DNA of 64,000 bases, taken from positions 96,283-160,282 of the IMG/VR virus record IMGVR_UViG_3300042474_001633, one strand, 5' to 3'. This document shows, one piece after another, positions 24,695 to 40,326 of this stretch; position 1 is the first letter of the stretch, and every line of letters starts with the position of its first letter. A program made the translations under genes and the position numbers. The DNA comes from a virus. Below the pieces are notes generated by a model. That model saw only the letters and a list, made by a program, of their open reading frames with translations. It had not been told where the DNA came from and did not search any database.

Positions 24695-24857
24695 CAACGT
24701 CATGATACAACTTGCGGGGCTCGAATACAAAGCCCGAAAACCAGATGTTGTTGCGCTGAGTTCTTCGGACTGACACGAGGCGACCTGAGCGAACGCAAAC
24801 AAAAAGCCCGCCTGCGGGGGGCGCAAGCGGGCTTCTTGTTTTCTTTTGTTGGCTGTT

Positions 24858-24911
24858 TTATGCGACCATTATTGCGAGAAAAATCATGGTACAAACTACG
24901 GTATACGACAC
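24858..24911 (-). CDS. 17-aa hydrophobic micro-protein (MSYTVVCTMIFLAIMVA)
   Basis: Own TTGACA-N17-TACTAT promoter (~24942-24970), AAGGGAG SD and downstream hairpin (~24803-24833). Confidence 0.5.
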   Translation of the reverse strand: MSYTVVCTMIFLAIMVA

Positions 24912-25075
24912 GCTAACTCCCTTCTTGTAGTGGTCAAAACGATAGTAGCCACTTACTTAGTAGTTGTCAAGCATTGACCTTCGTCACAGACACGAACACA
25001 CAAGTGTGCCAATAGTCACAAAAGTATGTTATCGGTATGGTTCCGAGACTTACTCATCCGTATCGGTCTTGGCTG

Positions 25076-25321
25076 TTAGAGCGAGTCTGAACGAGTCAGC
25101 ACTGTATCGGATGACTCACGGGTCAGTTCGTATCCGAGCGAGTAGCAGCGTGAGCAGACATCACTTAAAGCACCTACCAGCGCATCAGTTTTTTCCTCTG
25201 TCCATGTTGATTCGGCTGCTTCGGCTTCGGCTGCCTCCACTAGGGCTATCAGTCGGCTTAGAACAAGTTTGACTTCGCTTGCTCGCTTCGTCAGTTTCGT
25301 AATGTCGGTTTTTGTTGTCAT
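25076..25321 (-). CDS. Hypothetical early protein (leaderless)
   Basis: TTGACA-N17-TAGTAT six nt before the ATG. Confidence 0.65.
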   Translation of the reverse strand: MTTKTDITKLTKRASEVKLVLSRLIALVEAAEAEAAESTWTEEKTDALVGALSDVCSRCYSLGYELTRESSDTVLTRSDSL

Positions 25322-25621
25322 GTGTCAATACTAGGGGCATTTATCGCCCATGTCAAGTTCTAGACTGTGCAGTTAGACACACCCACCTGACCACCCACCC
25401 GTCTGACTTGCCGCCATCGTCACAGAAGCGGACAAGCAAGCAAGTCCCTCGAAGAACTCCTCGAGCTGGCGGCCGGCCCTCGAGAGCTGGTTGTTTTGAC
25501 GGGGCTCTAACCTGCCACGAGACATCTAGTTGCGACGGTGGCGGATGACGGACGTGAACGGGTACAGCAGAAAGCCCCACCTGCCGTTGGGCAAGTAGGG
25601 CTTTCTTGGGGGTCGTTGTGA

Positions 25622-25864
25622 TTATTGTGCTTGCTTTATTGCTTCGGACGCATCAAGAATGGCATTTTCCATTACTTTATGCGTAGCCGTTGCGAACAAT
25701 TCGGCGAGCGTTGCTGGCAAAGTGACTAGGTACTTTAGGATTTCTACCTGCTCATCTTTCAGCAATAGTTCTGTAGTGTCGTTGCTAATTTGCTCAAGCA
25801 TTTCGGCAATAGACATACACTCGTCCGCTATCTCTGTAAGCGTTTCTGCTGGCGTTTGGCTCAT
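25622..25864 (-). CDS. Hypothetical early protein
   Basis: AAAGGGGGG SD; TTGACG-N18-TACAAT promoter; start adjusted to MSQTP. Confidence 0.65.
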   Translation of the reverse strand: MSQTPAETLTEIADECMSIAEMLEQISNDTTELLLKDEQVEILKYLVTLPATLAELFATATHKVMENAILDASEAIKQAQ

Positions 25865-25948
25865 TTTCCCCCCTTTCTGATACCTATTGTATGGGGCACA
25901 AGTACCCCACGTCAAGTTTATTTCACGTGACATTGGGCACACGCTATT

Positions 25949-26078
25949 TGTGTCGGGCGTCACACTTGCGTTTGATGTGTCGGCGGTCACGTCCTGCGTG
26001 TCGGGCGTCACACAGCCCTACTATGTGCCGGCAGTCACACTACGTGTCGGGCGTCACACTACGTGTCGGCGGTCACAC
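25949..26078 (+). repeat. Six tandem CRP/GlxR-like boxes (YGTGYCGGNNGTCAC)
   Basis: GTG-N8-CAC at 25950, 25977, 25998, 26025, 26044 and 26063. Confidence 0.75.
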
Positions 26079-26081
26079 CGG

Positions 26082-26095
26082 CGAACAAGTGTTCG
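26082..26095. promoter_or_regulatory. LexA (SOS)-like box CGAAC-AAGT-GTTCG
   Basis: Matches the Gram-positive/actinobacterial CGAAC-N4-GTTCG consensus; near-match at 26942-26955. Confidence 0.5.
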
Positions 26096-39014: not shown

Positions 39015-39024
39015 AGCCGAGATA

Positions 39025-39071
39025 GGGCTAGTCGGGGAAAACACGCTTACTCCCCCGACTAGCCCGAAAAA
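39025..39071. terminator. Hairpin/terminator after the AAA-VWA operon
   Basis: GGGCTAGTCGGGG...CCCCGACTAGCCC. Confidence 0.6.
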
Positions 39072-39135
39072 ACACGCAATAGGAAGCGATTACAGCCGAG
39101 TTAGCGAACGACTTGATACACAGATAGGGGCATAA

Positions 39136-39354
39136 ATGAGCGACATACCAAAGGTGATACGAGTAGTTCGTATCTGGAAATACGACACAGACGAAGTGCG
39201 TAATGAAATCAGCGAGATGAACGGCGAGCCAGCCACAGACGCAGAAGTGCTTGACCTGATAACGGAGTGGACTTACGAGGACTTCTACAAGCCTGTTGGC
39301 GAAGGCGAACTAATGTGGCTTGATGATGAGACAGGAGAACAAGTCAATGTCTGA
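39136..39354 (+). CDS. Hypothetical protein
   Basis: AGGGG SD. Confidence 0.6.
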   Translation: MSDIPKVIRVVRIWKYDTDEVRNEISEMNGEPATDAEVLDLITEWTYEDFYKPVGEGELMWLDDETGEQVNV

Positions 39355-39487
39355 ACAAACTCTCACGCCAGAGGAACGCAAAGAACTGAAAGAACAGTTG
39401 GAACACGCACTCAAAGCAGACCCCGACAGCCTGTTGCGAGCAGTAGCAGAAGCAGTTGTCAAGATGAACCCACCGATAGACGAGTGA
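39347..39487 (+). CDS. 46-aa hypothetical protein (not in the ORF track)
   Basis: AGGAG SD; overlaps both neighbours. Confidence 0.5.
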   Translation: MSEQTLTPEERKELKEQLEHALKADPDSLLRAVAEAVVKMNPPIDE

Positions 39488-39666
39488 AGCACATCTTCTC
39501 TATCTCGTTCTTAGTACCTGACTGTACGAACGCCAACCCACACGAAGCGTGGGAACAAGAGAAGGATAAGATTATGTTTGCCCTACGGAAACGACTTCAC
39601 GAACTCACCGACGACGACGGAGAATACATAGCGAGCATTGACCACCTCGTTTCTTACGAGGACTAA
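39484..39666 (+). CDS. Hypothetical protein
   Basis: GTGA coupling. Confidence 0.55.
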   Translation: MKHIFSISFLVPDCTNANPHEAWEQEKDKIMFALRKRLHELTDDDGEYIASIDHLVSYED

Positions 39667-39689
39667 CTCTTTGACGGTGGCGTATGACT

Positions 39690-39944
39690 TTACTTGTTAG
39701 AGAATAACTGCTTGTCGTAAGAGCGAAACACTACATAGATGTACGCTACAACGACGCACCAACGGTATGACAGGATTTCAGTAATCACATCTGCTTGTCT
39801 AAGAACCAAAAGCAAACACCACAGCATTAGCCCATAGATAGCCCCTGCTAACGCCAGCCCACCAAGAGTTGTAAGCAGAATACTGCTTACCGTCTTGTGA
39901 TTTGGGTCTGGGTATGGTCTGACTTTGGGGAACTGATTAGGCAT
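39690..39944 (-). CDS. Small membrane protein
   Basis: Two hydrophobic segments. Confidence 0.6.
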   Translation of the reverse strand: MPNQFPKVRPYPDPNHKTVSSILLTTLGGLALAGAIYGLMLWCLLLVLRQADVITEILSYRWCVVVAYIYVVFRSYDKQLFSNK

Positions 39945-40326
39945 TTGTCAGAACACTTGTACGACGAAGTATCTGATGAACTCTCTGCCGTGACAAACCG
40001 TATTCATCAGCAATACTTTGTAGCGAGCGACCTGTGTTTCTAGCGTCAAGCATGGCTTCATCTCTCTGAGCGTCGCCTGTTGGCCCCGGCTTGCACGGCC
40101 CCCAAGACCAACGCGGGAACTGCTCGAGTTGAGCCTGTCTGTCCTGCGCTAACTTTCCACCCCTGTACTTCATGCGAAGATAACTCACCCATGAGCCAAG
40201 TGACACAACAACCCCATCAACTTCCACTTTCGCAGATGCTGGAACGAGCGCATGACCATTATTGGACACGAATAGTTCCAAAGCCTTTATGTTTCTTGAC
40301 CATTTCTCTGTTGTTCTCATAGTCAA
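39937..40326 (-). CDS. Helicase-associated (HA) domain plus sigma70-r4-like HTH
   Basis: W...L..F...GHALVP...LGSWV..LR...L..DR...L; SLQSIADEYGLSRQRVHQI. Confidence 0.75.
   Translation of the reverse strand: MTMRTTEKWSRNIKALELFVSNNGHALVPASAKVEVDGVVVSLGSWVSYLRMKYRGGKLAQDRQAQLEQFPRWSWGPCKPGPTGDAQRDEAMLDARNTGRSLQSIADEYGLSRQRVHQILRRTSVLTNA

Follow-up and report, generated by a model that had tools for sequence, protein, structure and literature searches.

In T5 and in T7-like phages, experiments with single enzymes have demonstrated that restriction sites are avoided in the DNA that is injected first. A site in this first-injected DNA decides whether the phage is sensitive, and sites elsewhere do no harm, since early products have taken effect by the time the remaining DNA arrives; in T5 the remainder is presumed to be protected by products of the first-step-transfer region (PMC12455610, PMC8594841). 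Here we describe a restriction-site desert of 15.4 kb in an uncultured virus. It lies in the final 64 kb of a single viral contig of 160,282 bp that is rated 100% complete (IMG/VR record IMGVR_UViG_3300042474_001633, positions 96,283 to 160,282). We refer to this 64-kb stretch as the window, and positions are those of the window unless genome positions are stated. The desert and its borders are as follows:

24,900-40,330, no strand: restriction-site desert; its left limit is the promoter that lies upstream of the SNF2 helicase gene, its right limit the HA/sigma70_r4 gene's 5' end
22,766-24,826, minus strand: SNF2-family helicase gene (PF00176, PF00271), just outside the left border and running leftward out of the desert
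39,937-40,326, minus strand: gene for a 129-aa protein with HA (helicase-associated) and sigma-70 region 4 helix-turn-helix domains (PF03457, E=3.4e-14; PF04545, E=7e-6)
40,082-40,127, minus strand: six retained sites inside the HA gene, where the frame reads ...WSWGPCKPGP...; conserved at the DNA level in six relatives

The block resembles the first-step-transfer DNA of T5 (Tequintavirus) in its share of a large genome (about 8-10%; here 15.4 of 160 kb), in early genes read by host polymerase, for which the evidence here is promoters and terminators at the consensus level, and in restriction sites that are missing from the segment and present elsewhere (here 68 against 562 expected, with normal flanks). 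It differs in that the T5 precedent in the cited work concerns the site of one enzyme (EcoRI), whereas 12 of the 16 tetranucleotide palindromes and more are affected here. The terminal repeat, the injection stop and the two-step transfer also belong to T5, while the present block is known from sequence alone. No annotation as A1, A2 or 5'-deoxyribonucleotidase, the T5 pre-early genes, was obtained in PHROG and Pfam scans of the block open reading frames (ORFs), which are profile scans and not a direct comparison with T5 proteins. In T7-like phages, including Murciavirus, only those sites that lie in the first-injected DNA are subject to restriction, and the early genes found there encode anti-restriction proteins. 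Most promoters of the block (8 of 11 strong ones) would point inward as in T7 if the leading end is at 40.3 kb, with an AAA+/VWA operon pointing outward. The T7-like case differs in that it concerns Type I motifs in podoviruses of about 40 kb with known fixed ends; here the maps are circular, and no Pfam match to the Ocr or SAM-hydrolase families was found among the block ORFs.

The host-takeover module of the Bacillus phage SPO1 lies in the terminal redundancy, and SPO1 DNA carries hydroxymethyluracil. As far as is generally known, this module is similar to the present block in having small early genes, arranged in short units with a strong host-type promoter and a terminator, and in making up about 9% of the genome. 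We know of no report of site avoidance confined to it. Conjugative plasmids have a leading region that likewise enters first, is rich in anti-defence genes (PMC11541004) and is GC-rich. However, the leading region was not consistently depleted in 4-8-bp palindromes across 1751 plasmids (PMC13478746), whereas depletion is near-complete here. Genome-wide avoidance of Type II sites in phages (Rusinov et al. 2018, as cited in PMC8594841) has its counterpart here in GATC; in the form in which that work is cited there, it differs from the avoidance of the other words, which is regional, polar and directed at many words. The principle of sub-genomic selection by restriction on first-exposed DNA is known. 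To our knowledge, the following aspects are apparently undescribed: how broad the purge is, how far it extends (15.4 kb), that its vocabularies are specific to lineages within a large uncultured family, and that its polarity can be measured.

Site depletion in the window and in related loci

We counted the palindromes AATT, ACGT, AGCT, ATAT, CCGG, CGCG, GGCC, TATA, TCGA, TGCA and TTAA, with expected numbers derived from the rest of the genome. These 11 avoided words were found 68 times in the whole desert compared to 562 expected, 17 times in the desert core (28,650-40,330) compared to 425 expected, and not once in the longest empty run (34,151-40,081, 5.9 kb), for which 216 were expected. The kept words CATG, CTAG, GCGC and GTAC served as an internal control and together occurred 172 times against 173 expected. 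The remaining 145 kb of the genome carry thousands of avoided sites, about 36 per kb. GATC was absent from the entire 160 kb, with about 497 copies expected from a second-order Markov estimate. For each avoided word the longest or second-longest gap in the genome falls within the desert, with chance expectations ranging from 6e-4 to 7e-23, and the 10 most depleted of all tetranucleotides were palindromes.

The depletion was not limited to these words. GGNCC, CCNGG, GANTC and TTSAA were almost eliminated from the block. All 64 hexamer palindromes pooled gave 28 occurrences compared to 187 expected, and hexamers containing the kept cores were lost (NCATGN, 0 against 12 expected; NGCGCN, 1 against 13) although CATG and GCGC themselves stay. 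The purge comprises 12 of the 16 tetranucleotide palindromes (GATC included), most hexamer palindromes and many asymmetric words, and coding and non-coding DNA are affected alike. In an initial annotation of this DNA 16 words had been read as missing from three intervals (30,780-32,470, 36,135-36,554 and 36,679-39,014), and our recount gave zero of each. The presence of CATG, GTAC, CTAG and GCGC was likewise reproduced, as was the free use of most of the avoided words in the flanks with the exception of GATC, flank site density being normal. The claim for GCNGC had to be restricted: it holds for the three intervals, but over the whole block this word is lowered and still present (25 against 67 expected).

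The same annotation had stated that its claim would fall if codon or amino-acid composition explained the depletion. This was addressed by synonymous-codon shuffles within genes, which preserve the protein and the codon usage of the gene itself. Shuffled versions of eight desert genes carried 11-48 avoided sites per gene, while the real genes carried none. Six flank genes had avoided-site counts near the shuffled expectation. The depletion is selected beyond codon or amino-acid usage. Asymmetric words were lost equally from both strands and in both transcription directions, as seen for GCTCC/GGAGC (0/0) and GGACC/GGTCC (0/0); GATGC/GCATC and CAATC/GATTG are further pairs with loss on both strands. 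The equal loss of asymmetric words from both strands argues for a selecting agent that reads double-stranded DNA, namely proteins acting on the duplex, and against a target at the RNA level. Avoidance of type II restriction should affect words with two-fold symmetry, or both strands to the same degree, and this is what was found. The best explanation is that selection has stripped the block of nearly every short word recognised by type II or type IIS endonucleases.

Related loci were identified by a marker gene in the cleanest part of the desert, for which 379 homologues were found on large viral contigs and which marks the block throughout the family. It belongs to the following operon:

36,100-39,700, plus strand: cleanest operon, encoding a 139-aa protein, a MoxR-type AAA+ ATPase, an HExxH-VWA protein and three small acidic proteins
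36,679-37,416, plus strand: MoxR-like AAA+ ATPase, 245 aa (PF07728 AAA_5, E=4.8e-11; phrog_16448), adjoining the VWA gene in relatives too
37,416-39,014, plus strand: 532-aa marker protein, which combines a helical HExxH domain at its N-terminus with a VWA domain at its C-terminus that bears a DxSGS metal-site motif

Both close and distant relatives carry the desert at the equivalent location, bounded by the SNF2 gene and the HA gene. The first sites of six relatives fall in the same conserved stretch of the HA gene, and the desert of the collinear relative G001 (169,327 bp) is likewise flanked by the SNF2 gene. We surveyed 34 loci with marker identities of 35-93% by comparing the 10 kb including and preceding the marker gene with the DNA downstream. 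At least one palindrome was depleted at least 4-fold in all 34 loci, with a maximum of 11 palindromes, and the block was slightly GC-richer than its flanks in most lineages. GATC was missing from 30 of the 34. In locus L039 it was present in the flank and depleted in the early block alone (2 against 24). Because this depletion is local, a word can shift between genome-wide and local avoidance.

The sets of avoided words were found to differ between lineages when profiles were taken from synonymous-shuffle tables. AATT, ATAT, TATA and TTAA are purged and CATG and GTAC kept in this phage and in L002, L006 and L019. In G001 and L004 CATG is purged while AATT, ATAT and TATA are kept, and in L016 both CATG and GTAC are purged and all four AT-only words kept. 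Purged in all three profiles is a common core of ACGT, AGCT, CCGG, GATC, GGCC and TCGA, and largely also CGCG and TGCA. Since orthologues lose different words in different lineages, the purge takes place in situ and is continually renewed. Word sets that are lineage-specific and renewed in this manner would be expected if the restriction repertoires of the hosts change.

Borders, polarity and early transcription signals

The right border is located at about 40,330, the 5' end of the HA gene, and dense sites start at 40,349. It had originally been placed at 39,950, and was corrected since the six sites at 40,082-40,124 represent a conserved stretch. Outside these 45 nt the HA/sigma-4 gene is clean, for which reason a physical end inside the gene was rejected. 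Approximately 23 nt at and just upstream of the start of this gene (40,318-40,340) are near-identical in five of six diverged relatives and may be regulatory. AGCT is still missing for 2.4 kb past the right border (40,378-42,747), as it is in most relatives.

The left border falls between 24,721 and 24,902, at the SNF2 gene start, with normal site density back by 24,721. The initial annotation had described a leakier depletion at 25-28.5 kb. This leak could be narrowed down to mainly three words, ACGT, AATT and TGCA, whose own gaps begin at 27.2-28.6 kb, together with sites just 5' of a repeated motif described below; these make up most of the sites at 24.9-28.6 kb. ATAT, TATA, TTAA and AGCT are already missing from 23.6-25.5 kb onward. 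The left border is word-specific and the right border shared, because the gaps of the avoided words begin at different positions on the left. All 17 residual sites of the core were accounted for: 11 lie at most 120 nt 5' of motif copies, and six in the conserved coding stretch of the HA gene.

To assess polarity, 45 strand-symmetrised pentamers were used as a vocabulary. Each is expected at least five times in the cleanest segment (36.1-39.7 kb) but does not occur there; chance predicts 0.58 such words. The vocabulary includes asymmetric, type-IIS-like words. To the left of this segment, the density of these pentamers per kb climbs in steps: 2-6 between 33 and 36 kb, 15 between 31 and 33 kb, 22-25 between 29 and 31 kb, 39-47 between 25 and 29 kb, 65 between 24 and 25 kb, and about 100 once the flank is reached. 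To the right, it changes from 0 to 66 and then 120 per kb within 1-2 kb. The purge is polar, with an abrupt right end and a decay of about 11 kb to the left, and with its own vocabulary G001 likewise has a sharp right edge and a graded left side. At 41-44 kb the 45 words are over-represented, with 120-137 per kb compared to a genome mean of 96.

The motif ACGGTGGnnnAWGA is present in 19 copies genome-wide. All are on the plus strand, intergenic and located between 25.5 and 45.2 kb (the last reaches 45,195), mostly spaced by 0.7-0.9 kb. Fourteen of them start at the following positions:

25,535, 26,198, 26,894, 27,788, 28,526, 29,194 and 30,048, plus strand: motif copies
30,715, 32,562, 33,383, 34,187, 35,805, 39,674 and 40,444, plus strand: motif copies, remainder of the 14

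In relatives with marker-protein identities of 35-54% the motif is likewise one-stranded, intergenic and confined to this region, and the box upstream of it varies by lineage, being TTCTTCT here and GCACTAtTT in G001 and L006. Besides the conserved coding stretch, the DNA just 5' of the motif is the sole place in the core where avoided words survive. The motif-adjacent spacers in the desert carry about 21 sites per kb compared to the genome mean of 36, and are less purged rather than loaded with sites. If motif copies within the desert and beyond it homogenised each other, this could account for the sites that survive. When the site-rich spacers 5' of the motif were considered as conserved hairpins, five of six folded no better than shuffled sequence. 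We rejected the motif as coding sequence, as some of its invariant bases fall on third codon positions and the copies are not spanned by any long ORF that is conserved. It is unlikely to be an early promoter, since separate sigma-70-like promoters lie downstream and its orientation is independent of gene direction. A polar role at the DNA level, such as that of a pause, nick, Chi-like or recombination site, is possible.

Sigma-70-like promoters were found at 28 sites compared to 14.8 in shuffles, and 18 of the 42 strong matches in the genome fall in the 25 kb around the block. The -10 boxes in the desert read TACTAT, TAGTAT, TACAAT, TACGAT or TACACT; the consensus TATAAT is avoided, which is consistent with the purge of TATA and ATAT. 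Strong minus-strand intrinsic terminators end most leftward units, each just right of a motif copy. In leftward units the motif separates one unit's terminator from the promoter of the following unit.

24,942-24,970, minus strand: leftward sigma-70-like promoter at the left border, TTGACA-17-TACTAT
25,356, 25,915, 28,373, 29,053, 29,732, 30,574 and 35,359 (starts), minus strand: the other seven leftward promoters
35,856-35,884, plus strand: rightward sigma-70-like promoter at the divergent junction near 35.8 kb, TTGCCA-17-TACAAT
36,610-36,638 and 32,603-32,631, plus strand: other rightward promoters
30,075-30,110, minus strand: intrinsic terminator with a 16-bp stem and a T-run
27,815-27,853, 29,224-29,260, 30,737-30,768, 33,426-33,459, 34,217-34,248 and 26,435-26,456, minus strand: similar terminators

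Leftward transcription runs on from the block into replication genes. On this consensus-level evidence from promoters and terminators, the block is best explained as an early host-takeover region that would be transcribed by host RNA polymerase. In the left part of the desert (25,946-26,078) there are in addition five close copies of a 16-20-nt unit (GTGTCGGGCGTCACAC) with spacings of 48, 27, 19 and 19 nt, an arrangement that resembles iterons or operators.

Proposed staged exposure to host restriction and its alternatives

We consider it probable, at roughly 60%, that the segment enters the cell first and well ahead of the rest of the genome, in a staged and polar manner, and that it is unmodified and unprotected until counter-measures of the phage take effect. 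Entry would begin at the sharp right border (about 40.3 kb) and proceed leftward, the early genes would be read by host RNA polymerase from the sigma-70-like promoters, and proteins encoded in the block would counteract restriction or protect in some other way the remaining 145 kb, whose site densities are normal apart from the avoidance of GATC. Staged exposure is suggested because purging 10% of the genome pays only if that part faces nucleases alone; the thousands of sites elsewhere (about 36 per kb) would otherwise be equally lethal. Entry from the right border is suggested by the sharp right edge, the leftward decay, the leftward direction of 8 of the 11 strong promoters and the leftward transcription into replication genes. 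The three main DNA methyltransferase families (PF01555, PF00145 and PF02086) gave no match in either this genome or G001. Self-methylation by an enzyme of a standard family is thus not indicated, and a restriction inhibitor or another form of shielding appears likelier. The interpretation given in the initial annotation is partly supported by these results, the depletion being selected, specific to double-stranded DNA, confined to an early-type block, conserved with lineage-specific words, and polar. The anti-defence functions that it also ascribed to the block are putative; no known anti-restriction family was found among the block ORFs in the Pfam and PHROG scans.

This last result also counts against staged entry, as do several others. 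The assemblies of the family are all circular maps, as would result from permuted ends or equally from a long terminal repeat that was collapsed, and in G001 the end of the present contig adjoins its start. G001 itself has an end overlap of 2,826 bp with 99.96% identity (one mismatch), but this maps to 60.3-63.2 kb of the window and not to the desert; it could be a product of long-read circular assembly or a real short terminal repeat. The 'direct terminal repeat' labels of six relatives in IMG/VR were rejected, as their overlaps of 101-127 bp equal the assembler k-mer size. In the deposited sequences of Gordonia Bendigovirus base 1 coincides with gene 1, an arrangement suggestive of circular permutation, and random ends would preclude a fixed first-entering region (argument in PMC12455610). 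Among about 80 relatives, contig ends do not accumulate at the left or the right border. Transcription of the cleanest operon (36.1-39.7 kb) runs toward the proposed leading end and not away from it. Finally, the leftward gradient could instead reflect turnover of genes or cassettes, with younger cassettes being less purged.

An alternative that does not need staged entry is that the whole genome enters at once, and that only the early block must stay intact for immediate transcription. Cuts elsewhere would be tolerated and resealed, the early products quickly stopping the nucleases and the breaks being mended, for instance through ligation or the kind of end-joining repair that many actinobacteria possess. 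The circular maps and the seemingly permuted terminase relatives agree with this, as does the location of the cleanest DNA in the conserved AAA+/VWA operon and not at a terminus, and part of the resistance of T5 was ascribed to efficient ligation in the BASEL study (PMC8594841). We nevertheless find it rather unlikely, as survival of cuts at about 36 avoided sites per kb across 145 kb is implausible, a one-sided gradient with a single sharp border is not predicted, and neither a ligase nor a Ku gene was identified in the block. Alternatively, the pattern could be a product of history and not of local exposure. The block would be a mobile early-gene module that was purged elsewhere, in genomes or host ranges with avoidance throughout the genome, before recombination distributed it, and the gradient would measure the residence time of its cassettes. 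Such shuffling could be promoted by the conserved direct-repeat motifs that lie between cassettes, and a second block (genome 13.4-33.7 kb) that is without counterpart in G001 indicates that word-free blocks can be lineage-specific. However, the SNF2 and HA borders recur at 35-60% marker identity while each lineage has its own word set, and the AAA+ and VWA orthologues are purged of different words in each lineage and so must have been purged in place; a purge inherited from elsewhere is unlikely.

If a DNA modification shielded the rest of the genome but not the early block, the block alone would have to avoid sites. Genome-wide avoidance of GATC suggests two tiers of protection, and a gene with a PAPS-reductase domain is present at 20,423-21,544. 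Blocking more than 12 specificities would need bulk base replacement, though, which replication would put into the block too; as the methyltransferase families named above were not found and no modification gene cluster was recognised nearby, we regard this as quite improbable. The avoided words could also be targets of the phage's own early nucleases that destroy host DNA, the block being the only phage DNA present at that time. T5 degrades the DNA of its host at the stage of first-step transfer, and word sets that differ between lineages would fit. Against this, no nuclease family was found in the block and one phage would need more than 12 specificities, which makes the idea highly improbable; it would moreover still require staged entry and is a variant of the explanation preferred here.

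For staged exposure, a fuller version may be drawn tentatively. It combines staged polar entry from the right border with a decay of the purge that would record exposure time per kilobase, avoided words that would form a negative image of the combined restriction repertoire of the hosts, and a one-stranded motif that would belong to the machinery of entry or protection as pause, nick or Chi-like sites. The combination as a whole is possible but doubtful. A near-universally 'uncuttable' 15 kb, conserved across hundreds of uncultured phage contigs with lineage-specific word lists, would represent an extreme of a known logic. If staged exposure is correct, the first-exposed DNA of unculturable phages could be revealed from sequence, the avoided words could disclose restriction specificities of uncultured hosts, and the about 30 genes of the block, most of them orphans, would offer a compact set to search for new anti-restriction functions.

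Gene content and host

The ORFs of the block are mostly small, acidic orphans; a DUF4314 protein is among the recognisable products. Other genes are:

31,544-31,762, minus strand: XRE-family helix-turn-helix regulator, 72 aa (PF01381, E=5.8e-18)
34,280-35,293, minus strand: acidic orphan of 337 aa, isoelectric point 4.6, the largest leftward early gene, with coding score and ribosome-binding site

The 337-aa gene contains no avoided site compared to 27 expected in shuffles. No Pfam or PHROG family was found for its product, and a feature search of the ESM Atlas returned hypothetical phage clusters, all below a reliable score. In the 532-aa marker protein H75, E76 and H79 of the HExxH domain and D377, S379, G380 and S381 of the VWA domain are invariant in 42 homologues. 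An AlphaFold2 model (predicted local distance difference test score 79.8) gave VWA and integrin I domains as the best PDB folds in Foldseek. These matches are weak (E about 0.01, probability 0.96; none with E below 0.001) and recognise the VWA domain alone. Neither tblastn against the phage collection nor a search of prokaryote genome contigs gave a match for this protein. With an AAA_5 ATPase beside a protein with VWA fold and DxSGS motif, the operon resembles MoxR AAA+/VWA pairs; the fold match is weak and the motif invariant. No tRNA or known RNA family was found within the block.

Products encoded in the window include an HK97-type capsid protein, a class II ribonucleotide reductase, a primase-helicase and the SNF2 helicase. 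Outside the desert the following genes were identified:

15,288-15,485 and 46,288-46,479, minus strand: two WhiB genes (PF02467, E=4e-14 and 5e-14), at a distance on either side of the block
18,244-19,461 and 50,840-56,020: five tRNA genes (Ile-TAT, Met-CAT, Arg-TCT, Asn-GTT, Thr-TGT)

WhiB is a family of actinobacteria and their phages, and among 14 control genomes the WhiB profile matched a single genus, Corynebacterium. Relatives likewise encode WhiB downstream of the block. The capsid protein was found to be 49% and the terminase 43% identical to those of Gordonia and Brevibacterium phages (range 40-49%), the closest cultured terminase relatives being Gordonia Bendigovirus (43%). No match to cultured phages was obtained at the DNA level, either for the block or for the flank. 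Because of the WhiB genes and the actinophage-like capsid and terminase, we infer that the genome belongs to a large (about 160 kb), uncultured phage with an actinobacterial host. A reading as a cyanophage similar to Ma-LMM01, to which genome size and GC content had pointed, was rejected, since NblA was not found and the genome encodes WhiB together with a capsid protein and a terminase of actinophage type.

A second, narrower word-free block is located upstream of the window (genome 13,430-33,651) and has no equivalent in G001. AGCT is absent there for 20.2 kb and CCGG for 14.2 kb (17,730-31,965), and GGCC is sparse. This block spans large plus-strand ORFs of 1605, 408, 435, 419, 704 and 710 aa with internal repeats.

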